A stretch of DNA of 64,000 nt from Steroidobacteraceae bacterium (GTDB lineage Bacteria > Pseudomonadota > Gammaproteobacteria > Steroidobacterales > Steroidobacteraceae). The stretch lies in assembly GCA_036262215.1 (NCBI GenBank), contig DATAJH010000106.1, positions 3,207-67,206 on the forward strand, given 5' to 3'. A program made the translations under genes and the position numbers. A model generated the notes under the pieces. The model made no database searches and had not been told where the DNA came from. It saw only the letters and a program-made list of their open reading frames with translations. How positions within the stretch are numbered: the first letter of the stretch is position 1; each line of letters begins with the position of its first letter. Of the stretch, positions 12,820 to 31,111 are shown in pieces.

Positions 12820-12823
12820 CGCC

Positions 12824-14720: not shown

Positions 14721-16745
14721 GTGTTCATCGTGCTGCTGGCGGTCGCCGCCATCGCCATCACCTGCGCGATTCTGCTCAACCGGCTGGTGCAGCAGCAGGC
14801 GCTGGTGCGCGCCCAGCTGGCGGTCGCCAGCGCGCGTGAGCTGCTGCGACGCGCCGGCGAGGACGCGCTCAGCGACGCGCGCGTGCTGGCCGAGCGCCCG
14901 ACGCTGCAACGCCTGATCGACAACGAGCAAAATAGCGGCCTGGAGCCGTTCTTGCGCCGCTTCAGCGAGACCACGCAGACCGACGTGACGGCGCTGATGC
15001 GCGGCGATACCGCGCTGGCCCAGTCCGGCCCGGCGATGGACTGGCCGGAAATCGCCACCGCGCTGCAGGAACAAGGTGAGCGCTTTGTCATCGCCCCGAA
15101 GGACGGCGGCCCACTGATCTGGGGAGCAGCGGCAACGGTGCCTGGCACCGGCGTGCGGGCGGTCACGCTCAAGCTTACGGACGAGAAACTGCTGCAAAAA
15201 CTCGGGCTCCAGGTCGGGGCGCAGCTGCGCGCGGTGAACTTCGCCGGCTATCACGCCCCGCCGGACGACGATATGACGACGTTGCACACCCGCGCGCTGG
15301 CCAATCCCGGCGGCGCGGCCGCAGGCAGGCTTGCCGGCGGCAAGCAGTATGCCGCCACCATCGTGCTGGCGGCGCAGACCGGCGAGGTTGTGGGACTGCT
15401 CGATGCGCGCCTTAGCGGCGCCGAATTCGCGGCCGCGACTCACAGCTTCGACTGGATACTCGGCACCACGGCGATCATCGTCGCGGCCATCGCCGGCCTG
15501 CTCGGTGTGCTCTACGGGCGCTGGCTGGCGCGGCCGGTCGTGGCGCTGCGCGAGCTGGCCGAGCGCATCGGCCGCGGCGACTTCTCCGTGGCGCTGCCGG
15601 CGGTAGCGCCGCTGGAAGTCGGCGCCCTGGCGCGCTCGATGAACGAGATGCGGCGCAACCTGGTGGAAGTGACCGACACGCTGCGACGGCGGGAGGCCGA
15701 AGCACAGACCGTGCTCAACGGCGTGATCGAGGGCGTGTATGCGGTCGATCACGAGCGGCGCATTCGTTACGCCAATGCCCAGGTGGCACGACTGCTGGGG
15801 CTGCCGGCCGGGGAGATTGTCGGCCAGTTCTGCGGTGACGTATTGCAGCCGCAGCGGGTCAACGGCGAGCGCCCCTGCGAGAGGCACTGCCCGATCCTCG
15901 CCGCTCGCGCCACGCCCCAGAGCAGCGCGCGCGAGATCCTGTGCCTGCGCGATGGCAGCACCCGCTCGGCCATCGTACTGAGTGCGCCGCCGGTGCAGGG
16001 CATCCAGGTGCAGATCCTGCGCGACGAGACCGATCTGGAGGCCGCGCGCCGCGCCCGCGACAGCGTGCTTGGCAATATTTCGCACGAATTTCGCACGCCG
16101 CTCGCGGCCCTGCTGGCCTCGATCGAGCTGCTGCGCGACGGCCTGAATGACATGCGGCCCGAGGCTCAGCGCGAGCTGCTGGCCAACGTCGAACGCGGGG
16201 TACTGCGCCTGATGCGCTTGATCGATAATCTGCTCGAGAGCGTGCGCATCGAGGCCGGGCAGCTCTCCATCCGCCAGCAACCGGTCGACCTGTCGGAGGT
16301 GATCGCCGATGCGCGCGATCTGATCGCACCGCTGCTGCGGCAGCGCCAGTTGACGATCGAGCTGGACGATTCAGGGCTAGGCGGTATGGTGCGCGGCGAT
16401 GCGCAACGACTCGGACAGGTGTTCGTGAACCTGATCGCCAATGCCGCCAAGTTCGCCCCCGAGGGCAGCATCATCCGCATCGGCGGCTGCAGCCGCGGCG
16501 CGCAGACCGAAGTGTGGGTGGAAGATGAAGGTCCCGGCGTGCAGGAAGGCAGTAGCGGCGCGATCTTCGAGCGCTTCCAGCGCGGCGCCGGGACCGAACC
16601 GGATGCACCGGGACTGGGACTTGGGCTGTGGATCGTCAAGTCCATCATCGAGCGTCACGGCGGCAGCGTGCGCATGGAGCGCACGCACGAGCGCCGCACA
16701 CGCTTCATATTGACGCTGCCGCGGCAGCCGGAGAGTGATGCTTGA
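14721..16745 (+). CDS. sensor histidine kinase (2 TM + ~220-aa periplasmic domain, HAMP, Cys-rich PAS, HisKA, HATPase_c)
   Basis: GTG start. TM1 IVLLAVAAIAITCAILL, TM2 ILGTTAIIVAAIAGLLGVLYG, H-box ISHEFRTPL, N-box NLIANAAKF, G-boxes EDEGPGV / GLGLGLWIV. Confidence 0.9.
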   Translation: MFIVLLAVAAIAITCAILLNRLVQQQALVRAQLAVASARELLRRAGEDALSDARVLAERPTLQRLIDNEQNSGLEPFLRRFSETTQTDVTALMRGDTALAQSGPAMDWPEIATALQEQGERFVIAPKDGGPLIWGAAATVPGTGVRAVTLKLTDEKLLQKLGLQVGAQLRAVNFAGYHAPPDDDMTTLHTRALANPGGAAAGRLAGGKQYAATIVLAAQTGEVVGLLDARLSGAEFAAATHSFDWILGTTAIIVAAIAGLLGVLYGRWLARPVVALRELAERIGRGDFSVALPAVAPLEVGALARSMNEMRRNLVEVTDTLRRREAEAQTVLNGVIEGVYAVDHERRIRYANAQVARLLGLPAGEIVGQFCGDVLQPQRVNGERPCERHCPILAARATPQSSAREILCLRDGSTRSAIVLSAPPVQGIQVQILRDETDLEAARRARDSVLGNISHEFRTPLAALLASIELLRDGLNDMRPEAQRELLANVERGVLRLMRLIDNLLESVRIEAGQLSIRQQPVDLSEVIADARDLIAPLLRQRQLTIELDDSGLGGMVRGDAQRLGQVFVNLIANAAKFAPEGSIIRIGGCSRGAQTEVWVEDEGPGVQEGSSGAIFERFQRGAGTEPDAPGLGLGLWIVKSIIERHGGSVRMERTHERRTRFILTLPRQPESDA

Positions 16746-17428
16746 AACTGCTGGTAGTCGATGACGATGCCGATATGCTGGCGGTAGTGGGCTTCGCCTT
16801 GCGCCAGGCCGGCTTTCCCGTCGTGAGCGCCAACAGCTACGGCACCGCGCTCAGCACCTTTCGCACCGAGCTGCCGGACCTGGCGATACTCGATATCAAT
16901 CTGCCGGGCGGCTCGGGCTTCGATCTGTGCGGCGTGTTACGCAGGGAAAGCACCGCGCCGATCATGATGCTCACCGCACGCGGCGAGGAGGCTGATCTGG
17001 TGCGTGCGCTCGAGCTTGGCGCGGACGATTACCTGACCAAGCCGTTCAGCCCGCGCACGCTCGTGGCGCGCGTCAAGGCACTGCTGCGACGTACCGGTCA
17101 CGACAGCGGTGGTCAAACCCAGGCCGGCGAGCTGTCGCTCGATCCGGATCTTCTGACGCTGCGCATCGCCGATCGCGAGATCAAGGTGACGCCGCTCGAA
17201 TCGCGGCTGCTGCAGTTGCTGCTGGCCAATGCCGGACAGGTGGTGCACACCGACCGACTGCTGGTGCACGTCTGGGGTCATCGCGGTGGCGGCGATCGCC
17301 AGCTGCTCAAGCAGCTGATCCATCGGCTGCGACAGAAGATCGGCGATGATCCGGAACAGCCGCGCTGGCTCAGCACCATCCCCAGCGTCGGCTACAAGCT
17401 GCACCTGACGAAAAAAAATGTTCCCTGA
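16742..17428 (+). CDS. OmpR-family response regulator
   Basis: TTG start overlapping the kinase stop. KLLVVDDDADML...LAILDINLPGGSGFDLC receiver domain. C-terminal winged helix (...LTPLESRLLQLLLANAGQVVHTDRLL...HRLRQKIGDDPEQPRWLSTIPSVGYKL). Confidence 0.93.
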   Translation: MKLLVVDDDADMLAVVGFALRQAGFPVVSANSYGTALSTFRTELPDLAILDINLPGGSGFDLCGVLRRESTAPIMMLTARGEEADLVRALELGADDYLTKPFSPRTLVARVKALLRRTGHDSGGQTQAGELSLDPDLLTLRIADREIKVTPLESRLLQLLLANAGQVVHTDRLLVHVWGHRGGGDRQLLKQLIHRLRQKIGDDPEQPRWLSTIPSVGYKLHLTKKNVP

Positions 17429-17627
17429 GATCGACTGAGATTCGCCGTCGTCGCAGCGCCGGTTCGCGCTCGCAGCGGCACCAGAAAATTCTTGCAAACC
17501 ATGGTAATTGCCGTCACAGTCATCGCAATAACGACGACCGGAACGCAGGCGAAAGCCCCACGGGACCAGGGAGGGAGAGCGCGCCAGGGACGGCGAGTTT
17601 TCGATCCTCCCAAAGGGCAATGCGTGA

Positions 17628-17840
17628 ATGAAGATCTACGGCGCCGACAATAAAGAGATGATGAATATCACGTCGCTGGAGCGCGAGGGCACCGATCTCG
17701 TAGTGAAGGGCAAACTGTTCGGCGCGATGCCGTTGACCGCGAAATTGCGGCCGGAGGACGCGCGCGCTGCGCTCAGGCTGCTCGACTTTCGCACCGCATT
17801 ATTCCTGCTGACGCTGTTGTTCCGGCGCAGGCGCAGCTGA
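17628..17840 (+). CDS. small hypothetical protein (70 aa) with C-terminal hydrophobic tail
   Basis: ATG ORF in an otherwise empty intergenic gap, with non-shadow amino-acid composition (MKIYGADNKEMMNITSLEREGTDLVVKGKLFGAMPLTAKL...). No family assignable by eye. Confidence 0.4.
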   Translation: MKIYGADNKEMMNITSLEREGTDLVVKGKLFGAMPLTAKLRPEDARAALRLLDFRTALFLLTLLFRRRRS

Positions 17841-17896
17841 GCACGAGGCCCAGCCAGCATCAGCCATAGCGGCATCCCCGGGCTGCCGCCCCGGTT

Positions 17897-18361
17897 TCAT
17901 TCCTTCGCGCCTGTCTCAGGCAGCTTCTGCGCCACGTCCCAGTGCTCGACGATCTTGCCGTCCACCAGCCGGTAGATGTCGACCATTGCCACGCCGCGGG
18001 ACTCCCCGGGCTTCTGGTCCCAGAACACCTGGACGGCCACCAGATCACCCTGGGCTACCGTGCGCTCCACCACTTTACGCGATGCGGGGTACTCGCTCGT
18101 GAGCAGATGGATCAGGACTTTGATCGCCGCCTCTCGATCGTCCGGCAGCATGGCACTGTGCTGCCTGAATTCCGCGCCGACGTAACGATCGAAGCCGTCC
18201 CTGACCCGGTGCTTGTTGAACACCGTCTCCTCGAATGCCAGCACCGTATGGGTGTTGGTCCTGGTCACCTCGGCGTCGATCAAAAGCCCGGAGGTTGCGC
18301 AACCGGTCGTGATCGCCGCTGCACCGACCATGAACGCTGCCAGCACTGTGCGCGTGATCAT
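17897..18361 (-). CDS. SnoaL-like/NTF2-fold lipoprotein
   Basis: 154 aa. Lipobox ITTGC. ...NTHTVLAFEETVFNKHRVRDGFDRYVGAEFRQH...VDIYRLVDGKIVEHWDV is a typical SnoaL-like polyketide-cyclase-fold pattern. Confidence 0.75.
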   Translation of the reverse strand: MITRTVLAAFMVGAAAITTGCATSGLLIDAEVTRTNTHTVLAFEETVFNKHRVRDGFDRYVGAEFRQHSAMLPDDREAAIKVLIHLLTSEYPASRKVVERTVAQGDLVAVQVFWDQKPGESRGVAMVDIYRLVDGKIVEHWDVAQKLPETGAKE

Positions 18362-18385
18362 GGTGTGGAATCTCCGGGCATTTGA

Positions 18386-19357
18386 TTACGGAATCAGTAC
18401 GGTCGAGCCAATGGTGCGGCGACTCTCCAGATCGCGCTGCGCCTGCGCCGCCGCCGCGAGCGGGTAGCGCTGGCCAATATGCACGCGGATGGCCTTGCGC
18501 CTGATGAGACCGAACAGCTCGCGCGCGCCAGCCCGCGGGGCCTCGGGTGCGGCCAGGTAATCGGCGGCACGCGCGCGGGTGAAATACAGCGATCCGCGCC
18601 TGGCGAGCTCCAGCGGCGAGAACGGCGGCGCAGCGCCCGAAGCGTTGCCGAAGCTCACCATCATGCCGCGCGGCCGCAAACTGTCGAGCGATGCGAACAG
18701 CGTATCCTTCCCGACACCATCGTAAACCACGTCGACGCCACGCCCGCGGTTGAGCTTACGCACCCTGGCGGCCAACTGCTCGTAGCCCACGAGCACCTGG
18801 TTGCAACCACTGCGCCTGGCGAGCCTTGCTTTGTCGTCGGTGCTGGCCACCCCGATCACTTTTGCACCCAGCGTGCGCGCCCACTGACTGAGGATCAGGC
18901 CGACGCCGCCAGCTGCGGCCGGAATCAGCAGCACGTCGCCGCGCTTGACCTTGCAGGTCTGACGCAGCAGAAACCAGCTCGTCAGTCCCTTGACCAGAAC
19001 CGCCGCGGCCTGCTCATCGCTGACGCCGGCGGGAGTCTTCAGCAGTACGTCGGCCGGCAGTACCCGCTGCTCGGCGTAGGCGCCGGGCGTGCGGAAATTG
19101 TAGACCACGCGGTCGCCCGGCTTGATGCCGCGCACCTTGCGACCCACGGCCTCGACCACGCCGGCGGCTTCGGAGCCGATGCCGGAGGGCAGCGGGTGCG
19201 GGTACAACCCGGTGCGCAGATACACGTCCGCGAAGTTGACGCCGATTGCCGTGTGGCGCACCAGCGCTTCATCCGCGCCGGGTTGGCCTACTTCGACCTG
19301 CTCCCACTTGAGAACCTCGGGCCCGCCGCGCTCGCTCAGTCGTATCGCCCTGGCCAT
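18386..19357 (-). CDS. qor: NADPH:quinone oxidoreductase (zeta-crystallin/MDR family)
   Basis: MARAIRLSERGGPEVLKWEQVEVGQPGADEALVRHTAIGVNFADVYLRTGLYP... and AAAGGVGL nucleotide-binding motif. ATG at 19357 is preferred over the track start at 19372. Confidence 0.9.
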   Translation of the reverse strand: MARAIRLSERGGPEVLKWEQVEVGQPGADEALVRHTAIGVNFADVYLRTGLYPHPLPSGIGSEAAGVVEAVGRKVRGIKPGDRVVYNFRTPGAYAEQRVLPADVLLKTPAGVSDEQAAAVLVKGLTSWFLLRQTCKVKRGDVLLIPAAAGGVGLILSQWARTLGAKVIGVASTDDKARLARRSGCNQVLVGYEQLAARVRKLNRGRGVDVVYDGVGKDTLFASLDSLRPRGMMVSFGNASGAAPPFSPLELARRGSLYFTRARAADYLAAPEAPRAGARELFGLIRRKAIRVHIGQRYPLAAAAQAQRDLESRRTIGSTVLIP

Positions 19358-19457
19358 CGGTGATCTCCTCATTCACCAGGCGGTCGCGCCAGGCGGTGAG
19401 AACCGCAACTTTGCCCTGAAGGCGCCTGGATAGCATCGCCTCACGCCGCCTTGGTTA

Positions 19458-19910
19458 TTGCCGGCGCGCGCCGCCTTCACGATCGGCGCCGTGTGGCTGT
19501 CTGTGGTCGATCCGGAACAGCAGCGCGAGCTGCGCCTGACAGCGGGCAGACTATCATACCGGTGCCGCGCGCTTAAACACGAGGCAGTGGCACGGTGGGG
19601 CGTCCGGCCCGAGGCCGCGCGCCACATGAACGTCGACCCGTCGCTGATCCGCCATTATTTTCGCGATCGCTCAACGCTGCTACTGGCTGCGGTGGCGAGG
19701 CTGAGCGCCGAATTATCGCGCCTCGTCATCGGCAGCGACTTCGATGAGCAAATAATGCTCGAATCCGGCCCGAAATTTGCAAGCCTTACAGCAACTCGGG
19801 AGCGCAGGGCCGCGCGACAGCCGGGGCACGAGCCATTACCATTGAGGCCGGCTTCCGCGCGCACCCGAACTCGTGTCGGCACCGTCCTACAAATTGCTAC
19901 AACAGACTGA
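19458..19910 (+). pseudogene. possible degraded TetR-family regulator remnant, divergent from qor
   Basis: Only a short stretch looks TetR-like (...GVRPEAARHMNVDPSLIRHYFRDRSTLLLAAVARL..., compare the usual VGVSxxxLYxHFxSKExLxxAV). The rest has no recognisable ligand-binding domain and GC drops locally. Weak call. Confidence 0.25.
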
Positions 19911-20071
19911 TGCCACTGGCAGTGTCAGTTGCGGACCCCGAGCAGATTCGGCAACTCCGCTTGCGTGGCACGTGGTGTGCTCATTACCGTACAAGGGCCC
20001 GCAGCGGGTAGGTGCAATTCGACGGTTATCCCTCCCTGTCGAGCCGTCAAACTACTTGTTCTGCGTTATTG

Positions 20072-20635: not shown

Positions 20636-21481
20636 TCATTCCGGCGCCGTTGGCTGATCGGCCGCAAACGGTGGTGTCGCACCGTACTGGCGATACATCG
20701 GGGCAAAGTCGGTGTTGTAGCAGGCCGCGAATAACTGCTCGAAACTATCGAGTACAAAATAGGTGCGCTGAAAATCATCAATGCGATAGTCGGTGCGCAT
20801 GACGCGCACCAGGTCGAAGTCCAGGCGCTGCGGCTCCGGACTCTCCACGCTGTAGACCGTCTCGCCTTTGGACGAGAGGATGCCGGCGCCGTAGACGCGC
20901 AGCCCGGAGCCGGTGCGAATCAGGCCAAATTCGACCATGTACCAGTACAGCCGCGCGAGCATGCGCAGGCCGCCCGGCGTGGCCATCGCCTTGGGTCCAG
21001 CCTCACCGTAGGCCTGCATGAAGCGCGCGAAGATCGGGTTGGTCAGCAGCGGCACGTGGCCGAAGAAATCGTGAAACACATCCGGTTCCACCAGATAGTC
21101 GAGTTCCTCGCGACTGCGGATCCAGACCGTGACGGGAAATCTCAGGTGCGCCAGATGATCGAAGAACGTGTGTTCAGGTATCAGTCCCGGCACTGCCACG
21201 ATGCGCCAGCCGGTGGTGGTCTGCAGCACTAGATTGGCGTCCTCGAAACGCGGAATCTGCGACGCCGAGGCGCCCAGCGCGCGCACCCCGGCCATAACCT
21301 CGGGTGCCGCATAGCGTTCAATCAGGTCGATCTGACGGCGATAGAGCGTCGCCCAGATGGCGTGCTCATGCTGCGAGTAGCGCTCCCAATCCTGAGCCAC
21401 GGTGTAATCCTCGGCCGCGCATGAATAATCGCCGCGCAAACCCCGAGGCTGATTTACCGGCGCCGACGGCGGCTGGACCAT
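20636..21481 (-). CDS. phhA: phenylalanine 4-hydroxylase
   Basis: ...HEHAIWATLYRRQ...VEPDVFHDFFGHVPLLTNPIFARFMQAYG...LARLYWYMVEFGL...YGAGILSS.... The iron-binding HxxxxH and downstream motifs are typical of bacterial PhhA. ATG at 21481 has AGGAG 5 nt upstream. The track start at 21589 would overlap mtnA. Confidence 0.9.
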   Translation of the reverse strand: MVQPPSAPVNQPRGLRGDYSCAAEDYTVAQDWERYSQHEHAIWATLYRRQIDLIERYAAPEVMAGVRALGASASQIPRFEDANLVLQTTTGWRIVAVPGLIPEHTFFDHLAHLRFPVTVWIRSREELDYLVEPDVFHDFFGHVPLLTNPIFARFMQAYGEAGPKAMATPGGLRMLARLYWYMVEFGLIRTGSGLRVYGAGILSSKGETVYSVESPEPQRLDFDLVRVMRTDYRIDDFQRTYFVLDSFEQLFAACYNTDFAPMYRQYGATPPFAADQPTAPE

Positions 21482-21560
21482 GCGCACTCCTGAGGAATCG
21501 ATGGGGCATTTTAACCCCGGCGGCATCGGTCGAGCGAAAAGCGGCTCAACTGCGCCGGCG

Positions 21561-22625
21561 CTATTCAAACAGCGCCGCAATGCCGGCAACGGTGGGTGAC
21601 CTGACCACCCCTTTTTCGGTGATCAGCGCAGTAACCAGCTCAGCCGGTGTCACGTCGAAGGCCGGATTGCGCACCGCGACATCGGCCGGAGCCCAGCGCT
21701 GATCAGCGAAGCCGCGCACCTCAGCGGCATTGCGTTCTTCGATCGGGATGTCCCTGCCGCTCGCCACCTGACGATCTATGGTCGATAGCGGCGCGGCAAC
21801 GTAGAACGGAATGCCGTGCCGCTGCGCCAGCACCGCGACCATATAGGTCCCGATCTTGTTGGCGAAGTCGCCGTTGGCGGCGATCCGGTCGGCTCCGACG
21901 ATGACCGCATCCACCGCACCCTGCTGCATCATATGCCCGGCCATATTGTCGGTGATCAAAGTCACCGGAATCTTCTCCTGTTGCAGCTCCCATACGGTCA
22001 GGCGTGCACCCTGGAGGAAGGGTCGTGTCTCGTCGACGATCACCGAAATGCTCTTCCCCGCGGCCACCGCCGAGCGGATCACCCCGAGCGCGGTGCCATG
22101 TCCCGCAGTAGCCAGCGCGCCGGCATTGCAATGTGTCAGTACCTGGGCCGTGGGCGGCAGCAGCGCGGCGCCATAAGCACCCATGGCGCGGTTGGCCGAC
22201 ACATCCTCGGCCAGTATGTCATGCGCCTCCTGCAGCAGCCTCGCGGCGATATCCGGCGGCGCCTGCCCCTGCGCGCTCGCCAGCGCAGCCTGCATGCGCT
22301 GCAGGGCCCAGAACAGGTTGACCGCGGTCGGGCGGCTTTGTGCGAGCAGCTCCAATGCCACGCTCATGCCGAGTGCGAAGTCGGTGTTGGACATCTGCCG
22401 CAGGCGCCGCGCTTCGAGCGCGACGCCATAGGCGGCGGCGCAGCCGATGGCGGGCGCGCCACGCACTACCATGTTGCGGATGGCAGCGGCCACCCCCGCC
22501 GCCGAATCGTAGGCCAGCATATCGAAACGTGCCGGCAGCACGCGTTGATCAATCATCTCGATCCGGCCGCTGGTGTCGTCCCAGCGCAGCGTCCGCACGG
22601 CCAGCGTGGCGCCGAGGTCGGTCAT
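21561..22625 (-). CDS. mtnA: S-methyl-5-thioribose-1-phosphate isomerase
   Basis: 354 aa. ...LRWDDTSGRIEMIDQRVLPARFDMLAYDSAAGVAAAIRNMVVRGAPAIGCAAAYG... (eIF-2B/MtnA family). The ATG abuts the mtnP stop (TGAATG). Confidence 0.93.
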   Translation of the reverse strand: MTDLGATLAVRTLRWDDTSGRIEMIDQRVLPARFDMLAYDSAAGVAAAIRNMVVRGAPAIGCAAAYGVALEARRLRQMSNTDFALGMSVALELLAQSRPTAVNLFWALQRMQAALASAQGQAPPDIAARLLQEAHDILAEDVSANRAMGAYGAALLPPTAQVLTHCNAGALATAGHGTALGVIRSAVAAGKSISVIVDETRPFLQGARLTVWELQQEKIPVTLITDNMAGHMMQQGAVDAVIVGADRIAANGDFANKIGTYMVAVLAQRHGIPFYVAAPLSTIDRQVASGRDIPIEERNAAEVRGFADQRWAPADVAVRNPAFDVTPAELVTALITEKGVVRSPTVAGIAALFE

Positions 22626-23513
22626 TCAATCGCTCCCGGATGTCGATCGACGACGCAGCACGCGGCCGGCAACGGCATCGAGAATCTTGACGACGTTGGG
22701 ATCGCGCGCTTCCGGCGCGGTGATCAGAGCGTATTCCAGCGCCCGCTGACACCCATGCGGGCACGCCGATGCCGGTGCCTGTACAACCCTGGGCACTGCG
22801 GATTTCAGCAATGCGCGCGCTTTGCCGGCATTGGCCTGCACCGTTTTGACGATCATATCAACCGTGACCGCATCGTGATCAGGGTGCCAGCAGTCGTAAT
22901 CGGTGACCATGGCGATGGTGGCATAGCACAGCTCCGCTTCGCGCGCGAGTTTGGCCTCCGGCATGTTGGTCATGCCGATGACATCGCAGCGCCAGGCGCG
23001 GTACAGCTCGGATTCGGCAACACTTGAAAATTGCGGCCCTTCCATCACCAGGTAAGTGCCGCCTCGCACATAACTGATCTGCAGGTTTCGGGCGGCGGCT
23101 TCGATGGCGTCACCCAGTCGGGCGCACACCGGATGCGCCATCGATACATGCGCGACCAGCCCGGTGCCAAAGAAGCTCTTGTCGCGCGCGAACGTACGGT
23201 CGATGAACTGATCGACGATGACGAACATGCCGGGCGGCAGCTCCGCCCTGAGCGCACCGACCGCGCTGACCGAAATGATCTGCGTCGCGCCGGCGCGTTT
23301 GAGGGCGTCGATGTTGGCGCGGTAATTGATCGCCGAGGGCGGTATCCGGTGACCGCGGCCGTGGCGCGGCAGAAACGCCAGCGCCTGGCCATCGAGTTCA
23401 CCCAGCAGCAGTTCATCCGATGGCGCACCATAGGGCGAATCGACCTTCACCCAACGGGTGTTGGTCAGTCCGTCGATGTTGTAGACGCCGCTGCCCCCGA
23501 TCATCGCCAGCAT
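22626..23513 (-). CDS. mtnP: S-methyl-5'-thioadenosine phosphorylase
   Basis: 295 aa. MLAMIGGSGVYNIDGL...FLPRHGRGHRIPPSAINYRANIDALKRAGATQIISVSAVGAL... (PNP/MTAP family). Confidence 0.93.
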   Translation of the reverse strand: MLAMIGGSGVYNIDGLTNTRWVKVDSPYGAPSDELLLGELDGQALAFLPRHGRGHRIPPSAINYRANIDALKRAGATQIISVSAVGALRAELPPGMFVIVDQFIDRTFARDKSFFGTGLVAHVSMAHPVCARLGDAIEAAARNLQISYVRGGTYLVMEGPQFSSVAESELYRAWRCDVIGMTNMPEAKLAREAELCYATIAMVTDYDCWHPDHDAVTVDMIVKTVQANAGKARALLKSAVPRVVQAPASACPHGCQRALEYALITAPEARDPNVVKILDAVAGRVLRRRSTSGSD

Positions 23514-23529
23514 GTTCGTTCCCCAGCGG

Positions 23530-25503
23530 TTAAATCACGCGCTCGTTGCCGCCGTCGACCGGCAGTTGCGCGCCCGTGGTCTTGTCGAACAGCGAGCCGC
23601 ACATCTCCGCCGCCAGTTCGGCTACGTCACGGCTGCAGATTTCGACTTTCAGCACATTGTTGGTCTTGTACCCGGCGATCGACAGACCGTAATGCCGGGC
23701 ACGTTCCGCCAGCACTTCATCCGACCAGATGCCGGTGTCGAATACCGCATTGGGATGCAACGTGTTGACGCGGATGCCGTCGGCACCCCATTCCAGTGCC
23801 ACCACGCGCGCCAGCTGCGTCAATGCCGCCTTGGACGCGGAATAGGCCGCCGCACCGGGTCCTGGCGCCGGCACGTTCTTCGAGCCGATGACTACCACGC
23901 GGCCGCCGCGCAGTGCGAGCCTGAGCAGCGGGTAAGTCTCGCGCAGCAGCGCCAGATTGGCGTCAAGATTGACCCGCATCACTCGCCGCCAGTCCTCATC
24001 CGCCAGCGCCGCGACGTGCTTGCCGCCGGGAAAGATGCCGGCGTTGAGCACCAGCAGGTCCAGCCCGCCGAATGCGCGCACGCCGCGATCCAGCGCCCGC
24101 GATATGTCATCGGCGGCGGTGACATCGCAGATCTGTCCGAGCACGTCCGGCCGCTGAAACACGGCGGCGACCTCGGGGTTGATATCGAGCGCGATCACCG
24201 CCGCGCCGCGTGCCAGCAGCGACTCGACACAGGCCTTGCCGATACCCGATGCGGCGCCGGTGACCAGGGCTACCTCGCCGGCGAATGCCGGTGGCGCACC
24301 GGTCTTCTTCAGCTTCGCCTGTTCCAGGTCCCAGTATTCGACGTCGAAGATGTCCTGCTCCGGCAAAGCACGATAGCCGCCGAGCGCGCTCGCCGCCAGA
24401 ATCACATCGATGGTGTGCGAATAGATATCGCGCACGATGTCCGCTTCCCCGACACTGCGACCGACACAGCCCAGCCCGAACCCGCCATCGAGCACCACGC
24501 GCGGCGCCGGATCGAGCATCACCTTGGGTTGTCTGGCGCGCGCGGCCTGTCGTGCGAAATAGTCGCGGTAGGCTTGCGCATAGCTGCCGACATCGCGCTC
24601 CAGCATCGGCACGCGCTTGGTGCGTATCACGTGATCGGGCGTCGCCGGGCCCTGCTGTGAAATCTGTGCGATATCGCCGCGCCGAGCGAAGGCGAGAAAT
24701 TTCGCATCGTCGTGGGTGGCAAAGATCACCGGGAAGCCGGCGCAGGCGGAGATGTCGTGGCGTAACCGCGCGATCTCCTGGCGGCCGGTGGCGGGCGCCG
24801 TTGCTGCCGCTGCTGGGGGCAGATGCCACGCGCGATTTTTTTCCAGATAGGCCTGCGCGCGGCCGACCAGCTCGATCATCCGCTGGTACGATTCCTGCGC
24901 GCTGCTGCCGAAGGAGAAGATGCCGTGATTGAGCAGCACCATGCCCAGCGTGCCCGCATGCGCCTGGCGCGGGAATTCCCGTGCGCACAGGCGGGCCAGG
25001 TCGAAGCCGGGCATCACATACGGAATCAGCACCACGTCGTCGCCGTAGATGTCGCGAATGCGCCGCGCACCGTCGGCGGTATTGGTGAGCGCGAGCAGCG
25101 CATCGGCATGCGTGTGATCGACGTACCGGTACGGCAGGATCGCATGCAGAATGGCCTCGACCGAGGGTGCCGGGGCGCCGGCGCGTACCAGCTGGGTCGC
25201 CAGTTCACTGACCATCTGCGGGTCGGATAAGGACTCGAGCCTCGCCAGTTTGAGCAAATGATCCAATCGTACCGGAGCAAAACCCGGTTCGCGGATGGTG
25301 GCCAGATCCCAGCCGCTGCCCTTGACGTAGAGAATATCCAGCGCTTCGCCCAGCACATTGACTTCGCGCAGCTTGACCGATGTGTTGCCGCCGCCGTGCA
25401 GTACCAGCGACGGATCGCGTCCCAGCAGTTGCGAGCTGTAGACACGCAGCGCCAGCTCACCGGAATAGCGCGCGGCATCGTCGCTGTTCCACAGTCCCAT
25501 CAC
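23530..25503 (-). CDS. bifunctional class II aldolase/adducin-domain + short-chain dehydrogenase/reductase fusion protein
   Basis: 657 aa. The N-terminal half has Zn-ligand motifs VDHTHAD and LLNHGIFSFG. The C-terminal half has SDR motifs VTGAASGIGKA, LNAGI and YSASKAAL. The likely start is ATG at 25500, one codon inside the track GTG. Confidence 0.9.
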   Translation of the reverse strand: MMGLWNSDDAARYSGELALRVYSSQLLGRDPSLVLHGGGNTSVKLREVNVLGEALDILYVKGSGWDLATIREPGFAPVRLDHLLKLARLESLSDPQMVSELATQLVRAGAPAPSVEAILHAILPYRYVDHTHADALLALTNTADGARRIRDIYGDDVVLIPYVMPGFDLARLCAREFPRQAHAGTLGMVLLNHGIFSFGSSAQESYQRMIELVGRAQAYLEKNRAWHLPPAAAATAPATGRQEIARLRHDISACAGFPVIFATHDDAKFLAFARRGDIAQISQQGPATPDHVIRTKRVPMLERDVGSYAQAYRDYFARQAARARQPKVMLDPAPRVVLDGGFGLGCVGRSVGEADIVRDIYSHTIDVILAASALGGYRALPEQDIFDVEYWDLEQAKLKKTGAPPAFAGEVALVTGAASGIGKACVESLLARGAAVIALDINPEVAAVFQRPDVLGQICDVTAADDISRALDRGVRAFGGLDLLVLNAGIFPGGKHVAALADEDWRRVMRVNLDANLALLRETYPLLRLALRGGRVVVIGSKNVPAPGPGAAAYSASKAALTQLARVVALEWGADGIRVNTLHPNAVFDTGIWSDEVLAERARHYGLSIAGYKTNNVLKVEICSRDVAELAAEMCGSLFDKTTGAQLPVDGGNERVI

Positions 25504-25537
25504 GTGTCACAATACCTTGTTTTCTCGATGAATTATG

Positions 25538-25610
25538 TGGGTCGGGTGGGGCTCGAACCCACGACCAACGCCTTAAAAGGGCGCTGCTCTACCGACTGAG
25601 CTACCGACCC
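25538..25610 (-). tRNA. tRNA-Lys (anticodon UUU)
   Basis: Hand-folded: acceptor GGGTCGG/CCGACCC, D-arm GCTC-AGTCGGTA-GAGC, anticodon arm GCGCC-CTTTTAA-GGCGT, T-arm GTGGG-TTCGAGC-CCCAC, discriminator A. CCA is not encoded. Confidence 0.9.
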
Positions 25611-25689
25611 GCTGGGCGCCGCGCAAACGGCCGCGCATAATATGCGAAAAGCCCCTATGCGGGCACGCTTGGGCCTACCTGGGCCGGCC

Positions 25690-26379
25690 TCACCGATACC
25701 CGGTCGGATCGGCGATGCCCGCCGCCTCGAAGCCTTGGCGCCGCAGCCGGCAGGAATCACAGCGGCCGCAGGCCCGACCCGCGGCATCTGCCTGGTAGCA
25801 CGATACGGTCATGGCGTAATCAACTCCGAGCCTGACACCGCTTTGGATGATCTGCGCCTTGCTCATCGATATCAGCGGCGCATGTACCTTGAACTGCGTG
25901 CCTTCAACACCAGCCTTGGTGGCGAGCGAGGCCAGCGCCTCAAAGCCGCGGATGAACTCGGGGCGGCAGTCCGGGTAGCCGCAATAGTCGACAGCATTGA
26001 CGCCGACCACCAGATCGCGCGCCTCGAGCACTTCGGCCCAGGCCAGCGCCAACGCCAGCAACATGGTATTTCTCGCCGGCACGTAGCTGACCGGGATGCC
26101 GCTGCCCGGCTGATCGGGCAGCGCAATGCTCCAGTCGGTCAATGCCGAGCCACCGATACCGGCCAGATCCACCTGCATCACGCGATGCTCGCACGCCGAT
26201 AGTGCGCGTGCGACGCGCGCCGCCGCCGCGAGCTCGGACTGGTGGCGCTGACCGTAGGCGACCGTCAGAGCGTAGCAATCGAAGCCCTGCGCCCGCGCCC
26301 AGGCCAGCGCGGTACTCGAATCGAGGCCGCCGGAGAGCAGCACCACGGCGCGTGCGCCCGTGTCAGCGGCCCGGCTCAT
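25690..26379 (-). CDS. queC: 7-cyano-7-deazaguanine synthase
   Basis: ...[19 protein letters not shown] (PP-loop SGGxDS) ... and C-terminal Zn cluster [13 protein letters not shown] at 26379. The track ORF is over-extended to 26688. Confidence 0.93.
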
Positions 26380-27016
26380 CGCCCCACAGGTGCTTGTGCA
26401 GCTGGATCTGGAAACGCACCGGCAGCCGGTCCGCCAGAATCCAGTCGGCGAGTTGCCGCGCCGGCAGCTGCTCGTGACTCGCGGAGAACAGCACCTGACA
26501 GCGCTGCGCCAGCTGCAGCGATGCCAGCTTGCTGCGGCTCCAGTCGTAGTCGGCGCGGTCGCACACCACGAACTTGATCTGCTCTTCAGGCCGCAGCAGC
26601 GCCAGTTGATCGTAGCGGTTGCGGTGCTCCTCGTGCGACCCCGGCGTCTTGACGTCCACCACGCGGATGACACGCGGGTCAACCGCATCGATCGCCATCG
26701 CGCCGCTGGTCTCGAGCGACACCCGGTAACCGGCCTCGGCCAGCGCGCTCAGCAGTGCCAGGCAGTTCGGCTGCGCCAGCGGCTCCCCACCGGTGACGCA
26801 GACGTAGCGCACCTGGAACTCACGCACCCGCTCGAGGATGGCGGCCAGCTGCCACCACTGACCGCCATGAAAGGCATAGGCGGTATCGCAGTACTGGCAG
26901 CGCAGCGGACAGCCGGTCAGGCGTATGAAGACCGTCGGGATTCCGACCGTGTCGGCCTCGCCCTGCAGCGAGTAGAAGATTTCCGTGAGCTTGAGCCGGA
27001 CGCTCAATCCGCTCAC
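26363..27016 (-). CDS. queE: 7-carboxy-7-deazaguanine synthase (radical SAM)
   Basis: ...[42 protein letters not shown]... (CxxxCxxC radical-SAM cluster). Start is GTG at 27016 or TTG at 27007, so uncertain. It overlaps queC by 17 nt. Confidence 0.88.
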
Positions 27017-27017
27017 C

Positions 27018-27821
27018 CTAATGCTCGTCGGGCGGGATGTTCTGCAGTCTGCTGGCCGCGAGCTTGGCCGCATCGGTGCCTGGGAAGCGCTGTACCACCT
27101 GCTTCAATGTCGCACGGGCATCGACCAGTTTCTTCTGGTCGATCTGCGTCAAACCGAGTTTCACCAACGCGTCGGCCACCTTGGGCGACTGCGGATATTG
27201 CTCGCCGACCGCGCGAAATGCGACGGCAGCATTGTCGTAGTCGTGGGTGACGTAATAGGCTTCGCCCAGCCAGTACTGTGCATTGCCGGCGAGCTGGCTC
27301 TGCGGATAGGCGCGCACGAAATCGCGAAAGCGGGTGATCGCGCCGGCGTAGTCGGTGGACTTCAGGGCATCGAATGCGCGCGCGTACGCGGCCTGATCGC
27401 CACCGCTGTCGGCACCGGTCGCGCCGCCGCCGCCACTGCCATCGCCTGACCCGAGCGCCCCGTTCTTCGCCCCCGCCTGCAGTGCCGACAGCCTGCGATC
27501 CAGGTCGGCATACAGGTCGCGCTGCTGCTTGCGCAGCATGTCATTGCTGTTTTGCAGCTCCTCCTGCTCGCCGCGCATCTGGCGCATCTGGGTTTCGAGC
27601 ACATCGATGCGCTGCGACAGCTGCAGCAGTCCCTGATTGACGTGCTCGATACGTCCGAGTCGCTCATCGACGTCGTTGAGCTTGACCTGCGTGGGATCGG
27701 GCTGCGACGGCGTCGACTCGCAGGCGGCCAGCAGCAGCGTGGCAATCGCCAGCGGCAGCCACCGGGGTGGCAATCGTCGGGGAAGCGACCATCGAGTTGG
27801 CAGCGGTGACATCAGCGGCAT
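27018..27821 (-). CDS. cpoB: Tol-Pal system protein CpoB (YbgF)
   Basis: Signal peptide, coiled-coil (...LETQMRQMRGEQEELQ...), and C-terminal TPR (...AGNAQYWLGEAYYVTHDYDNAAVAFRAVGEQYPQSPKVADALVKLG...). Confidence 0.9.
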   Translation of the reverse strand: MPLMSPLPTRWSLPRRLPPRWLPLAIATLLLAACESTPSQPDPTQVKLNDVDERLGRIEHVNQGLLQLSQRIDVLETQMRQMRGEQEELQNSNDMLRKQQRDLYADLDRRLSALQAGAKNGALGSGDGSGGGGATGADSGGDQAAYARAFDALKSTDYAGAITRFRDFVRAYPQSQLAGNAQYWLGEAYYVTHDYDNAAVAFRAVGEQYPQSPKVADALVKLGLTQIDQKKLVDARATLKQVVQRFPGTDAAKLAASRLQNIPPDEH

Positions 27822-27823
27822 GG

Positions 27824-28366
27824 TTAATTCAGATAGACGATGTCTACCCGTCGATTGCGCGCCCAGGCCTCTTCCGTGTGGCCGGTGACCGCCGGCCGCT
27901 CCTCGCCGTAGCTCACGGTCGTGATCTGCACTTCCGCTACCCCCTGCAGCGTCAGCGCCCGACGCACCGACTGCGCACGGCGCTCGCCGAGGCCGATGTT
28001 GTATTCGCGCGAGCCGCGCTCGTCGGTATTGCCTTCCAGCCGCACCCGGACCGACGGGTTCGAGGCCAGGTAGCGCGCATGGGCCGTGATCAGGCTGTTG
28101 TAATCCGACTTGACCTCGCTGCTGTCGAAGTCGAAATAAATGGTCCGATTCTGCAGCTGTGCTCCCGATGGGCCTGCCACGCCGGCCCCGGAGGCATCCC
28201 CGGCCGCGCCGAAGGCCTTGGAAGCGTCGGCTCCCGAAGTCTGCGACTGATCGGTGGGCACCGCGGCGTTGCTGCTGGTTGGCGTCGGGCGCGGCTTTTT
28301 GCTGCTGCAGCCGGCGACCAGCGAGACGCTGAGCACAGCGATCAGGATGAGAACGGTCTTGTTCAT
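27824..28366 (-). CDS. pal: peptidoglycan-associated lipoprotein Pal
   Basis: MNKTVLILIAVLSVSLVAGC lipobox. OmpA-like C-terminal domain (...IYFDFDSSEVK...LEGNTDERGSREYNIGLGERRAQSV...). ATG at 28366. Confidence 0.93.
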   Translation of the reverse strand: MNKTVLILIAVLSVSLVAGCSSKKPRPTPTSSNAAVPTDQSQTSGADASKAFGAAGDASGAGVAGPSGAQLQNRTIYFDFDSSEVKSDYNSLITAHARYLASNPSVRVRLEGNTDERGSREYNIGLGERRAQSVRRALTLQGVAEVQITTVSYGEERPAVTGHTEEAWARNRRVDIVYLN

Positions 28367-28461
28367 GTTGCTACTCCAATTGTCGCTGCCGGGTCGCGGC
28401 AGCCGCCTTATTACCATACTGCGCCGCAAGCTAACACCTGCGGCAGGCCCGCAAGGCGCCG

Positions 28462-29817
28462 CTAGCGCGGGAATGGTCCCCACACCGGTTCGCGCACCTC
28501 GCCCTGATCCGACTTAAGCCGCTGCGTGACCAGCCCGTCGACCGACACCGTCTGCAGTGTCCCGATCTCGCCGTCGCGCCCGGCGTAAATGATGGCCGCC
28601 CCATTGGGCGCAAAGCTTGGCGATTCATCCAGGCTGCCGTGCGAGAGCACGCTCACGGTACCGGAAGCCAGATCCTGCACCGCGATTCGGTAGTTGCCGC
28701 CATCGCGCGTCACGTAGGCGATTTTCTTGCCGTCCGGAGACACGCGCGGCCGCGCGTTGTAGGCCGAACCGAAGGTTATGCGCTCGACGCGCTTGGGCTG
28801 GGCAATATCTAGCTTGTAGATCTGCGGGCCGCCGGCGCGATCCGAGGTGAAATACAGGCTCTTGCCGTCCGCACTCCATGCCGGCTCGGTATCGACCGCC
28901 GGATCGTCCGTCAGCCGCGTCAGCCCCTGGGTGCTCAGATCGAGCAGCCAGACGTCCAGATTACCCCCGACGCCCGACAGCGTCAGCGCCAGATGCGTGC
29001 CATCGGGTGAATACGCCGGCGCGCCGTTGACGCCGACCCGGGCCGATACCAGCTGGCGCTCGCCGGTGTGTACCTTCTGCACGTACACGCCCGAGAGGCG
29101 GTTTTCGAACGATACGTAGGCCAGCCATTGCTCGTCAGGCGACCACGCCGGCGACATGATCGGCTGCAACGACTCGAGAATCACTTTCGGATTCTCGCCG
29201 TCGGCATCGGCAACGATGAGCTGGAAGTGTTGGCTGGGCGGCTGCCCGCGCACCGCCACGTAGGCGATTCGGGTGGCAAATGCGCCGCGCACGCCCAGGA
29301 TCTTGCCGTAGATGAAATCGCTGACCAGGTGGGCGGCATTGCGCAGGCTGGCGCTGTTGGCAATGAATTTCTGGCTGGCGACGCGGCTTCCGGTCTGGAT
29401 ATTGATCAGATCGCATTCGACGTCGAGCTCACTGGCCGAGGCCGCGGTCACACGGCCGACGGCGACATAGTCATTGCCTGCCGCCTTCCAGTCGGCGGCC
29501 TGCACGTCGTTGGCGCTGGTCGGGGTGGTCAGCATGTCGCGTCGCTGCATGGCGCGAAAGCGTCCGCTGCTCTCCAGGTCGTGCTGGACCACGGCAGCGA
29601 CGTCGAAAGCACCGTCCGCCGGCATCGCTCGTGCGAACGGTACGATCGCGATTGGGATCGGGTCGGTGACACCCTTGGTGATCAGAACCTGCAGATCCGC
29701 CCGCGCCGGTGCGACCGCGAGGCCCATGGCCGCGCCGATCAGCAGCGCGCAACCAACCAGGCGCTGCGGCCACTGCCGTGCCGGCGCCGCCATCCCTCGG
29801 GTCATTGCTCTATTCAT
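28462..29817 (-). CDS. tolB: Tol-Pal system beta-propeller protein TolB
   Basis: Signal peptide ...LAVAPARA, TolB N-domain, and repeated PAWSPDG-type propeller motifs (SPAWSPDEQWLAY, PAYSPDGTHLA, PAWSADGKSLYF, PRVSPDGKKIAY). The start is uncertain: ATGs at 29817, 29805 and 29793. Confidence 0.92.
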   Translation of the reverse strand: MNRAMTRGMAAPARQWPQRLVGCALLIGAAMGLAVAPARADLQVLITKGVTDPIPIAIVPFARAMPADGAFDVAAVVQHDLESSGRFRAMQRRDMLTTPTSANDVQAADWKAAGNDYVAVGRVTAASASELDVECDLINIQTGSRVASQKFIANSASLRNAAHLVSDFIYGKILGVRGAFATRIAYVAVRGQPPSQHFQLIVADADGENPKVILESLQPIMSPAWSPDEQWLAYVSFENRLSGVYVQKVHTGERQLVSARVGVNGAPAYSPDGTHLALTLSGVGGNLDVWLLDLSTQGLTRLTDDPAVDTEPAWSADGKSLYFTSDRAGGPQIYKLDIAQPKRVERITFGSAYNARPRVSPDGKKIAYVTRDGGNYRIAVQDLASGTVSVLSHGSLDESPSFAPNGAAIIYAGRDGEIGTLQTVSVDGLVTQRLKSDQGEVREPVWGPFPR

Positions 29818-30667
29818 CGGGCGCGAACGTAACATCGATGTTTGGATCAAACAATGCCGGATCCGAGGGGGCCGGCAGCGGGGAGGCCCGGTAGGCAGCG
29901 GTTTCTACCGACTGTCTTACAGCCTCATCGCCGTTACAGCCCGCCACCACGACGTGCGTGATCTCACCACCCGGAATCTGCGTGATATGCAGCAGGCACT
30001 TCACACCGGGCCGCGCGCTGGCCGGCCTGATCCACGCACGGTTGATGCGCGCCGTGATCAACGACAGATACTCGGCCTTGGCCGGGCTCGACTGCACGGC
30101 GTTGATATGCTCTTCGCTCGCCATCTGCGAGCGCAGGTCCGCCTCGCGCTGGGCACGCTCCTGCTCGGCCTTGCGCTGCTGGGCGAGCTGCTGCGCCTTG
30201 CGATCGGCCTCGGCCTTGGCAGCGGCGGCACGCTCCGCCTCAGCCTTGGCGGCAGCGGCACGTTCGGCCTCGGCTTTTTCGGCTGCCGCGCGCTCGGCCT
30301 GCTCGCGCTGACGCTGCTGCTCGGCCTGCTCCTCGGCGCTGCGCTTTTCCTGCGCGGCGCGCTGCTGTTCCTGTGCCTTTTGCCGCGCTGCCTCGTCCGC
30401 CCGCGCCTGCTGTGCGGCCTGCTCTTCCGCCGATGGCACCGGTGGCGGCGGATTTGCCGGCTCCGGGGGCGGATTCGCCGGCGGGCTTGGTGGCTGGGTC
30501 GCCGGCGGCGCGTTGCGCACTACGGTGGCTTCGATCGCCAGACTCGGCACTGTCGCCGTTGGCCGCCGGTACTGGAACCATCCCCACAACAGCACGCCGA
30601 CGATCGCGGCATGGATCAGTATCGACAGTACGATCGACAGGACACGATCGCTCCGGCGTTCGGTCAT
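29810..30667 (-). CDS. tolA: Tol-Pal system protein TolA
   Basis: N-terminal TM (VLSIVLSILIHAAIVGVLLW), Pro-rich segment, long Ala/Glu/Lys/Arg helical domain, and C-terminal TolA domain (...RINRAWIRP...). Confidence 0.88.
   Translation of the reverse strand: MTERRSDRVLSIVLSILIHAAIVGVLLWGWFQYRRPTATVPSLAIEATVVRNAPPATQPPSPPANPPPEPANPPPPVPSAEEQAAQQARADEAARQKAQEQQRAAQEKRSAEEQAEQQRQREQAERAAAEKAEAERAAAAKAEAERAAAAKAEADRKAQQLAQQRKAEQERAQREADLRSQMASEEHINAVQSSPAKAEYLSLITARINRAWIRPASARPGVKCLLHITQIPGGEITHVVVAGCNGDEAVRQSVETAAYRASPLPAPSDPALFDPNIDVTFAPDE
30211..30300. repeat. three imperfect 30-nt tandem repeats inside tolA domain II (encode AEAERAAAAK-type units)
   Basis: Read directly: cggccttggcagcggcggcacgctccgcct / cagccttggcggcagcggcacgttcggcct / cggctttttcggctgccgcgcgctcggcct. 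Confidence 0.6.
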
Positions 30668-31110
30668 GGCGGGGTCGGTGCCTTCGGCAGCGGATCGGTC
30701 TGGAAGCCGACCTTATGGGCACCGGCCTGCTGCAGAATGACCATGGCCTGCACTACGCGGCCATAATTTACCGCCTGATCGCCGTTGACCAGCACCGCAC
30801 GCTCCGGCGCACGCCGCAGGGCGGCCGTGGCGCGCACCAGGGCGGTCTGATCGTCCACCGGCTGGCGCGGATTGGCACCCAGGTTAAGGTACAGCCGGCC
30901 GCTGGCATCGATCGACAGCACCAGCGGCGGTTCGTTCGCCTGCGTGGCGATCGGTTCGGCCTTGGCCTTCGGCAGGTCGACCTTGATGCCTTGTGTCAAC
31001 AGCGGCGCGGTGATCATGAAAATAATCAGCAGCACCAGCATCACATCGATGTAGGGCACCACGTTGATGTCGCCCATCAATCTGCGCTTGCCTTTGGTGA
31101 GTGCCGGCAT
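30664..31110 (-). CDS. tolR: Tol-Pal system protein TolR
   Basis: MPALTKGKRRLMGDINVVPYIDVMLVLLIIFMITAP... (ExbD/TolR family). ATG at 31110, 1 nt after the tolQ stop. The track ORF is over-extended. Confidence 0.93.
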   Translation of the reverse strand: MPALTKGKRRLMGDINVVPYIDVMLVLLIIFMITAPLLTQGIKVDLPKAKAEPIATQANEPPLVLSIDASGRLYLNLGANPRQPVDDQTALVRATAALRRAPERAVLVNGDQAVNYGRVVQAMVILQQAGAHKVGFQTDPLPKAPTPP

Positions 31111-31111
31111 G

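Follow-up and report, generated by a model that had tools for sequence, protein, structure and literature searches.

What does a class II aldolase fused to a short-chain dehydrogenase/reductase (SDR) do when its gene stands in line with two genes of methylthioadenosine (MTA) salvage? This question is raised by a 64,000-nucleotide stretch of contig DATAJH010000106.1 from a Steroidobacteraceae bacterium (hereafter the window), in which the fusion gene, mtnP and mtnA follow one another on the minus strand. We propose, from sequence comparison, that the operon probably encodes a variant of the dihydroxyacetone phosphate (DHAP) shunt, in which the fusion would cleave 5-methylthioribulose-1-phosphate (MTRu-1-P) and 5-deoxyribulose-1-phosphate (5-dRu-1-P) and process the aldehyde that is released. 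The original prediction for this locus had also placed a class II aldolase/SDR fusion in the DHAP shunt. The fusion itself and its linkage to mtnA and mtnP stood; a correction concerns the aldolase half, which is of the RhaE/YuxG type and not of the Ald2/FucA type. The genes of the operon are as follows.

23530-25503, minus strand: aldolase-SDR fusion gene, 657 aa (open reading frame (ORF) call, Pfam, NCBIfam NF006196)
22626-23513, minus strand: mtnP, S-methyl-5'-thioadenosine phosphorylase, 295 aa (NCBIfam)
21561-22625, minus strand: mtnA, S-methyl-5-thioribose-1-phosphate isomerase, 354 aa (NCBIfam)

The two partner genes were identified with curated hidden Markov models (HMMs). MtnP scored 502.7 bits on NF006492 (cut-off 437) and 305 bits on TIGR01694 (cut-off 275) and carries the Pfam domain PNP_UDP_1. 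MtnA scored 442.4 bits on TIGR00512 (cut-off 279) and 468 bits on NF004326, with the Pfam domain IF-2B. The gene string and both junctions are as the original prediction described them, by the ORF call and by reading of the sequence. The fusion gene ends in TAA and is separated from mtnP by 16 nt (...GTGATTTAA-CCGCTGGGGAACGAAC-ATG), and at the mtnP-mtnA junction, GATTGAATGACC, the stop and start codons abut as TGAATG with a 0-nt gap. No terminator-like site was predicted at the fusion-mtnP or the mtnP-mtnA junction. Together with the 16- and 0-nt spacing, this fits a single transcript. The fusion starts at one of two candidate codons, GTG at 25503 or ATG at 25500. The local absence of mtnB, mtnC and mtnD, a further element of that prediction, was borne out among the ORFs examined: no MtnB-, MtnC- or MtnD-like ORF (class II aldolase, ARD cupin, enolase-phosphatase) was found in the window by inspection of translations by eye and by Pfam on ten ambiguous ORFs, which is not an HMM scan of every ORF.

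MTA and 5'-deoxyadenosine must be disposed of by every cell that uses S-adenosylmethionine (SAM) for polyamines or radical-SAM chemistry. In the described variants of the DHAP shunt, MtnP, or MtnN together with MtnK, is followed by MtnA and Ald2 (PMC13474568, PMC10986504), and the 5-deoxyribose pathway consists of DrdK, DrdI and DrdA, with a FucA-like aldolase (PMC6079011). According to a 2026 review, the enzyme that reduces 2-methylthioacetaldehyde in the DHAP shunt is still unknown (PMC13474568). Rapp et al. concluded that cyanobacteria with only mtnP and mtnA, and without an Ald2 homologue, "must employ another pathway" (PMC8102628). The fusion had been thought uncharacterised in MTA salvage, and our full-text searches found no published description of it in this role. 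A mention may exist in North et al. 2020, which is reportedly the main bioinformatic survey of the DHAP shunt.

In the scheme that we propose, MtnP would release adenine from MTA or 5'-deoxyadenosine by phosphorolysis and leave 5-methylthio- or 5-deoxy-ribose-1-phosphate, which MtnA would isomerise to the ribulose-1-phosphate. The Zn-dependent aldolase domain would cleave this compound, rather than dehydrate it, to DHAP and 2-(methylthio)acetaldehyde or acetaldehyde. The aldehyde may be channelled between the domains to the covalently attached NAD(H)-type SDR, which would convert this reactive product at once, most likely by oxidation to methylthioacetate or acetate with formation of NADH; reduction to the alcohol would be less likely. 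In loci that carry apt, Apt would recycle the adenine freed by MtnP. The closest guide to the redox step is RhaEW, which splits L-rhamnulose-1-phosphate into DHAP and L-lactaldehyde and, with NAD+, oxidises this aldehyde to L-lactate (Rodionova et al. 2013, PMC3870299). RhaEW is inactive with NADH, and no DHAP is formed unless NAD+ is present (PMC3870299). The original prediction had allowed either reduction or oxidation of the aldehyde; its processing by the same protein is plausible, and oxidation appears somewhat likelier because RhaEW oxidises with NAD+ and is inactive with NADH. We consider it rather likely that the fusion is a non-orthologous replacement of both Ald2/DrdA and the aldehyde oxidoreductase of the described shunt.

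The fusion protein consists of three parts.

24829-25503, minus strand: class II aldolase domain, residues 1-225 (motif search, PDB 3m4r match)
24292-24828, minus strand: conserved middle domain, residues 226-404 (strong matches to PRK08324-type models only)
23530-24291, minus strand: classical SDR domain, residues 405-657 (Pfam, alignment, motifs)

Pfam detected PF00596 Aldolase_II at residues 30-220 (E = 1.6e-18) and PF00106 adh_short at residues 411-593 (E = 1.2e-40). The Zn-ligand motifs DHTH and NHG and the SDR motifs TGxxxGxG, NAG and YxxxK, which had been reported as intact, were all located by motif search. The aldolase half contains GGGNTS (37-42), KGSG (61-64), PSVE (113), DHTH (129-132) and NHG (192-194), and the SDR half TGAASGIG (415-422), NAG (487-489) and YSASK (554-558). 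By motif comparison with FucA, we take H130, H132 and H193 to be the Zn ligands and E116 the catalytic residue, and GGGNTS and KGSG are presumably phosphate-binding. The catalytic motifs of both halves are intact; 20 family members retain them, and their conservation across five subfamilies is almost complete. In the alignment, D440, S541, Y554 and K558 hardly vary from one subfamily to another. D440 lies at the end of beta2 (VIALD, 436-440), and the same Asp is present in the rhamnose-locus fusion described below. An Asp at this position is a hallmark of NAD(H)-preferring classical SDRs, and D440 thus suggests that the SDR domain of the fusion prefers NAD(H).

The middle domain is specific to the fusion superfamily and ends with an invariant EYWDLEQAKL motif. 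In the alignment, that of the window fusion is without the 12-17-residue insertion found in other subfamilies. An AlphaFold2 model built from a shallow 20-sequence alignment was mediocre, with a mean predicted local distance difference test (pLDDT) score of 68 and a peak of 80-93 over residues ~240-380, in the middle domain. With this model, Foldseek matched only PDB 3m4r and generic SDRs.

The family to which the fusion belongs was determined from curated HMM cut-offs and pairwise identities. The protein scored 1073.5 bits on NF006196 ('bifunctional aldolase/short-chain dehydrogenase', PRK08324.2-4; cut-off 831) and was aligned over residues 1-657 of 657. On the two models for rhamnulose-1-phosphate aldolase/SDR, it scored below the cut-off, with 444.5 bits on TIGR02632 (cut-off 567.75) and 410.3 bits on NF006189 (cut-off 634), and the Rhizobium etli rhamnose-locus protein scored 1200 and 1291 bits on the same models. 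The aldolase half and the middle domain gave strong NCBIfam matches to the PRK08324-type fusion models only; outside the fusion models, the best NCBIfam matches were marginal (RhaD, E = 0.003; MtnB, E = 0.07). When residues 1-404 were compared with all PDB chains by phmmer at E ≤ 10, the sole match was 3m4r, which aligned to residues 12-222 (E = 4e-49); the metal and phosphate motifs are all present in both proteins. The structures of FucA, RhaD, DrdA and APIP/MtnB were presumably among the chains searched. Likeness to the Ald2/DrdA (FucA-like) family does not go beyond shared membership of the PF00596 superfamily. An Ald2 fused to an SDR was considered and ruled out, as the aldolase half has no detectable FucA-like similarity and groups with RhaE-type fusions. 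Judged by these scores and identities, the fusion represents a branch of paralogues within the RhaEW/YuxG-type fusion superfamily. The architecture of Aldolase_II, middle domain and SDR is common to RhaEW, in agreement with the earlier comparison to rhamnulose-1-phosphate aldolase/lactaldehyde dehydrogenase fusions.

Within this superfamily, the window fusion belongs to a discrete and conserved orthologous group. Those relatives at 62-85% identity that were scanned with NF006196 scored 1058-1212 bits irrespective of phylum. Outside the group, identity is 43% or less even for the nearest proteins, which do not reach the cut-off of 831. The family is already catalogued, under a generic or a misleading rhamnose name; many NF006196 members are annotated 'rhamnose utilization protein RhaD' by JGI.

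To what genes is this group linked? A scan of GTDB species representatives yielded at least 600 relatives, and the best 80 loci, 62-85% identical, served as the linkage set. Linkage was scored by tblastn with the window MtnA and MtnP in the fetched flanks, within 10 kb, and neighbours were clustered within 6 kb on either side of the fusions of the 80 loci. The set includes Gammaproteobacteria (Steroidobacterales, Acidiferrobacterales, Sulfuricaulis), with the closest relatives labelled Steroidobacterales/Steroidobacteraceae, Betaproteobacteria (Burkholderiales, Nitrosomonadales, Gallionellaceae, Usitatibacter), Cyanobacteria (Pseudanabaena, Limnothrix, Spirulina, Crocosphaera and others), one Zetaproteobacterium and Verrucomicrobia. 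The original prediction had proposed examining whether the linkage is conserved, and it is: mtnA lies within 10 kb of the fusion in 31 of the 80 loci, mtnP in 8 and apt in 4. The counts by group are given below; the two columns (at least 1.5 kb downstream; mtnA present) were tallied separately and imply no locus-by-locus match.

Betaproteobacteria: 29 loci; at least 1.5 kb downstream, 20; mtnA present, 20
Gammaproteobacteria: 21 loci; at least 1.5 kb downstream, 17; mtnA present, 3
Cyanobacteria: 20 loci; at least 1.5 kb downstream, 19; mtnA present, 3
Zetaproteobacteria: 1 locus; at least 1.5 kb downstream, 1; mtnA present, 1
Verrucomicrobia: 2 loci; at least 1.5 kb downstream, 2; mtnA present, 1
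Unclassified labels: 7 loci; at least 1.5 kb downstream, 5; mtnA present, 3

The linkage to mtnA spans five phylum- or class-level groups and at least five arrangements. These include fusion-mtnA, fusion-mtnP-mtnA and fusion-mtnP-apt-mtnA (four loci); in Limnothrix and Chthoniobacter the fusion and mtnA genes are convergent, and one cyanobacterium has mtnA upstream. In Betaproteobacteria, mtnA is on the same strand and downstream of the fusion in all 20 cases, at a distance of 3-486 nt in 18 of them. MtnA from one cyanobacterial and one verrucomicrobial locus passed TIGR00512. The four loci with apt, hosted by a Zetaproteobacterium, a Gallionellaceae metagenome-assembled genome (MAG) and two other proteobacterial MAGs, are as follows.

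L021, 12918-13445: apt between mtnP and mtnA
L025, 13055-13582: apt between mtnP and mtnA
L032, 11915-12442: apt between mtnP and mtnA
L035, ~13038-13562: apt between mtnP and mtnA

The product, adenine phosphoribosyltransferase, scored 278-283 bits on NF002634 in the two loci scanned, and its place in these four operons speaks for an adenine nucleoside as the substrate. By far the commonest neighbour of the fusion was mtnA, and the remaining recurrent neighbours were lineage-specific. Neither rhamnose genes nor mtnC/mtnD-like or other MtnB/C/D partners were found among the recurrent neighbours of the 80 loci. A second, independent association of a fusion with mtnA was found on Rhizobiaceae plasmids, where a fusion of the NF006192 subfamily occurs with mtnK and mtnA.

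A single-copy gene in a genome of ~4 Mb falls within 10 kb on either side of a given gene by chance in ~0.5% of genomes. Against this expectation, linkage in 31 of 80 loci in several arrangements argues for functional coupling. We regard as very improbable a gene order that is merely inherited or accidental, without functional coupling, and an unrelated housekeeping role of the fusion. Such a reading could account for the cyanobacterial and gammaproteobacterial loci, in most of which mtnA is not nearby, and for the betaproteobacterial ones, which may stem from one ancestral arrangement; phhA, queC and queE, too, adjoin the operon in the window and recur only in the closest relative. It is difficult to reconcile with at least five arrangements in five phylum- or class-level groups, with the independent mtnK-mtnA link of a second subfamily, or with the rank of mtnA as the commonest neighbour by far; no other neighbour recurs across phyla.

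If mtnA and the fusion are coupled, is MTA the source of the sugar phosphate? Fusions of other subfamilies, and one unfused homologue, were drawn from plasmid records for comparison, with identities given relative to the window fusion.

Rhizobium etli p42e fusion: 32-33% identity; NF006189 / TIGR02632; in a rhamnose locus with rhaI, rhaS, rhaM and an FGGY kinase
Rhizobium sp. K102 fusion: 38% identity; NF006195; near an FGGY kinase
Shinella fusion: 42-43% identity; 718 bits on NF006196, under 831; record without annotation
Sinorhizobium meliloti pSymB unfused aldolase and middle domain: 41-44% identity; after the lsrK-lsrACDB locus
NF006192 fusion on two Rhizobiaceae plasmids: 37% identity; L085 (LR723679.1), 411-10444, and L086 (NZ_CP119568.1), 7966-20034

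The R. etli p42e fusion carries the NCBI annotation rhamnulose-1-phosphate aldolase/SDR. Its setting illustrates another reading, namely that the window fusion catabolises a different deoxy- or keto-sugar phosphate, such as rhamnulose-1-phosphate, fuculose-1-phosphate or another ketose-1-phosphate. The substrate of the 'MtnA' would then be another sugar-1-phosphate, or its linkage would have nothing to do with MTA or 5'-deoxyadenosine. The JGI label on many members is in keeping with this, as are the rhamnose activity of RhaEW, the characterised member of the superfamily, and the association of other subfamilies with FGGY kinases and ABC transporters in loci for sugar catabolism. The RhaE substrate is also unlike MTRu-1-P in its stereochemistry. 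We nevertheless consider this reading unlikely. A check against rhamnose enzymes had been called for in the original prediction; the fusion falls under both the TIGR02632 and the NF006189 cut-offs, is only 32-33% identical to the R. etli fusion and has no rhamnose neighbours, as rhamnose isomerase, kinase and transporter genes were found neither among the recurrent neighbours nor among the window ORFs examined. In addition, its neighbours pass the equivalog cut-offs for MtnA and MtnP, and the apt gene of four operons suggests an adenine nucleoside.

The S. meliloti homologue bears on the chemistry of the aldolase domain. On pSymB (L083, CP140934.1, 7001-8251), a protein with the aldolase and middle domains but without an SDR aligns to residues 1-399 of the window fusion at 41% identity. 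Its gene directly follows lsrK, a regulator gene and lsrACDB, which is the expected site of lsrF/lsrG, the genes for processing of autoinducer-2 (AI-2) phosphate. The aldolase and middle-domain fold may therefore be used for a different phospho-pentose chemistry in the S. meliloti lsr locus. A corresponding possibility for the window fusion is that its aldolase-like domain does not cleave MTRu-1-P but dehydrates it as MtnB does, epimerises it or subjects it to some other enediolate reaction, and that the SDR acts on the product, in a separate methionine-salvage branch rather than the DHAP shunt. MtnB has the same class II aldolase fold and metal-site motifs, so that the motifs alone cannot tell an aldolase from a dehydratase, and there is a weak match to the MtnB HMM (E = 0.07). 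The position of the unfused homologue at the end of an AI-2 (lsr) locus, where P-DPD is a phosphorylated diketone, suggests that the chemistry of the superfamily is varied. We judge this possibility quite improbable: the sole characterised homologue is a true aldolase that makes DHAP, the RhaD match is stronger than the MtnB match, and mtnC/D-like partners were seen neither among the window ORFs examined nor among the recurrent neighbours.

The NF006192 clusters on the two Rhizobiaceae plasmids contain, in order, a sugar-binding regulator, the fusion, a divergent sugar ABC transporter, mtnK, mtnA and a split transketolase. In L086, a RuBisCO-like protein comes next; the L085 record stops short of this position. 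The cluster resembles an island for uptake and catabolism of a 5-deoxy- or 5-methylthio-pentose, from which two downstream branches would be possible. A wider proposal, which we hold to be a little short of probable, takes the NF006196 and NF006192 fusions together as the last enzyme of MTA/5'-deoxyadenosine salvage in bacteria that have only MtnP or MtnK and MtnA. The RhaE-type aldolase would have been re-tuned to D-erythro 5-deoxypentulose-1-phosphates and obligatorily coupled to an SDR by which acetaldehyde or methylthioacetaldehyde is oxidised to the acid. The hosts would include Nitrosomonadales and Gallionellaceae (Betaproteobacteria), Steroidobacterales, Zetaproteobacteria and many Cyanobacteria. 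If this wider proposal is true, these bacteria have a self-contained, aldehyde-free DHAP shunt, and methylthioacetate is a previously unrecognised sulfur metabolite.

Several points weigh against the assignment of the fusion to the DHAP shunt. No sequence similarity could be detected between the aldolase half and the FucA/Ald2/DrdA/MtnB group. L-Rhamnulose-1-phosphate has the 3R,4S configuration, whereas MTRu-1-P and 5-dRu-1-P are 3R,4R, the configuration of FucA/Ald2/DrdA-type substrates. Because the C4 configuration differs from that of the RhaEW substrate, a change of C4 selectivity would be required. The linkage to mtnA is weak in Gammaproteobacteria (3 of 21) and in Cyanobacteria (3 of 20), and much of the betaproteobacterial linkage may be inherited synteny. 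Neither the window nor 20 related loci yielded a SAM/SAH or other riboswitch. The model cyanobacteria studied by Rapp et al. are absent from the 120 NF006196 matches listed. In favour of the assignment, NF006196 is widespread in cyanobacteria, among them Crocosphaera (including ATCC 51142), Rippkaea PCC 8801, Leptolyngbya PCC 7376, Spirulina and Coleofasciculus.

If the assignment to the DHAP shunt is correct, one family would explain both salvage with mtnP and mtnA only, in the absence of mtnBCD and Ald2, and the handling of the aldehyde in many environmental bacteria. It would also correct the widespread mis-annotation 'rhamnose utilization protein RhaD', and would add a second case in which an SDR is coupled to a class II aldolase so as to contain an aldehyde.

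The operon is flanked by the following genes.

25537-25610, minus strand: tRNA-Lys(UUU), 33 nt upstream of the fusion start
20636-21589, minus strand: phhA, phenylalanine 4-monooxygenase (TIGR01267, 348 bits), directly after mtnA

The tRNA-Lys(UUU) gene forms the 5' boundary of the operon and is probably not a functional part of it. As it lies only 33 nt upstream, there is no room for a leader or a riboswitch before the fusion. The phhA ORF as called overlaps mtnA by 29 nt, which is probably an artefact of the first TTG being taken as the start, with the true start at a downstream Met. The position of phhA next to the operon is kept in the closest relative (L010) only. In the region 25537-27073, the tRNA gene has as its next neighbours queC and the radical-SAM gene queE, whose product generates 5'-deoxyadenosine. 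A functional link of the operon to queE was considered and rejected as lineage-specific; queC and queE recur only in L010, where they are 7 kb away.

Two further clusters of the window were recognised by eye. Upstream of queE, 27018-34617 contains a standard cpoB-pal-tolB-tolA-(tolR)-tolQ-ybgC cluster and then ruvB/A/C. A signalling cluster at 36768-44209 includes a 1223-aa PAS/GGDEF/EAL protein, a KaiC-like double-ATPase ORF (41060-42547) and a GGDEF-histidine kinase hybrid (42572-44209). The window also encodes an ABC transporter ATPase resembling those of sulfate/molybdate importers, with a C-terminal extension of ~300 aa (9884-11770), and a CysW/T-like permease (13705-14550).

How does the fusion compare with known systems? 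The closest solved structure, PDB 3m4r, is the N-terminal class II aldolase domain of a Thermoplasma acidophilum protein from structural genomics. It differs from the window protein in being archaeal, with the aldolase domain alone solved and no function assigned. With RhaEW/YuxG, the fusion has in common the Aldolase_II, middle and SDR domains, the catalytic residues and the Asp at the end of beta2, and the predicted logic is also the same, with cleavage of a ketose-1-phosphate followed by immediate processing of the aldehyde. It is unlike them in its 32-33% identity to the rhamnose-locus member, its scores under both cut-offs and the lack of the middle-domain insertion, and it lies beside mtnA, mtnP and apt, with no rhamnose genes seen in the loci examined. 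The C4 configuration of its expected substrate is opposite to that of the RhaEW substrate.

Canonical methionine salvage shares MtnP and MtnA with the window operon, and the fold of MtnB is likewise that of class II aldolases. It differs in that no MtnB/C/D-like ORF was found among the window ORFs examined and in the predicted C-C cleavage to DHAP, by which the methylthio group would not be directly returned to methionine. The resemblance to the DHAP shunt of R. rubrum, R. palustris and extraintestinal pathogenic E. coli (ExPEC) lies in the clustering of the phosphorylase variant and MtnA with a class II aldolase-fold protein, and in the predicted products, DHAP and an aldehyde. The NF006192 clusters with mtnK and a sugar transporter mirror the Drd cluster of B. 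thuringiensis (DrdK-DrdI-DrdA) and the E. coli clusters. In contrast to the DHAP shunt and the Drd pathway, the aldolase of the window is not of the Ald2/DrdA/FucA type, has an extra middle domain and is covalently fused to an SDR. The aldehyde step, which in the described shunt falls to a separate enzyme, is thus predicted to be part of the pathway enzyme itself in the fusion.

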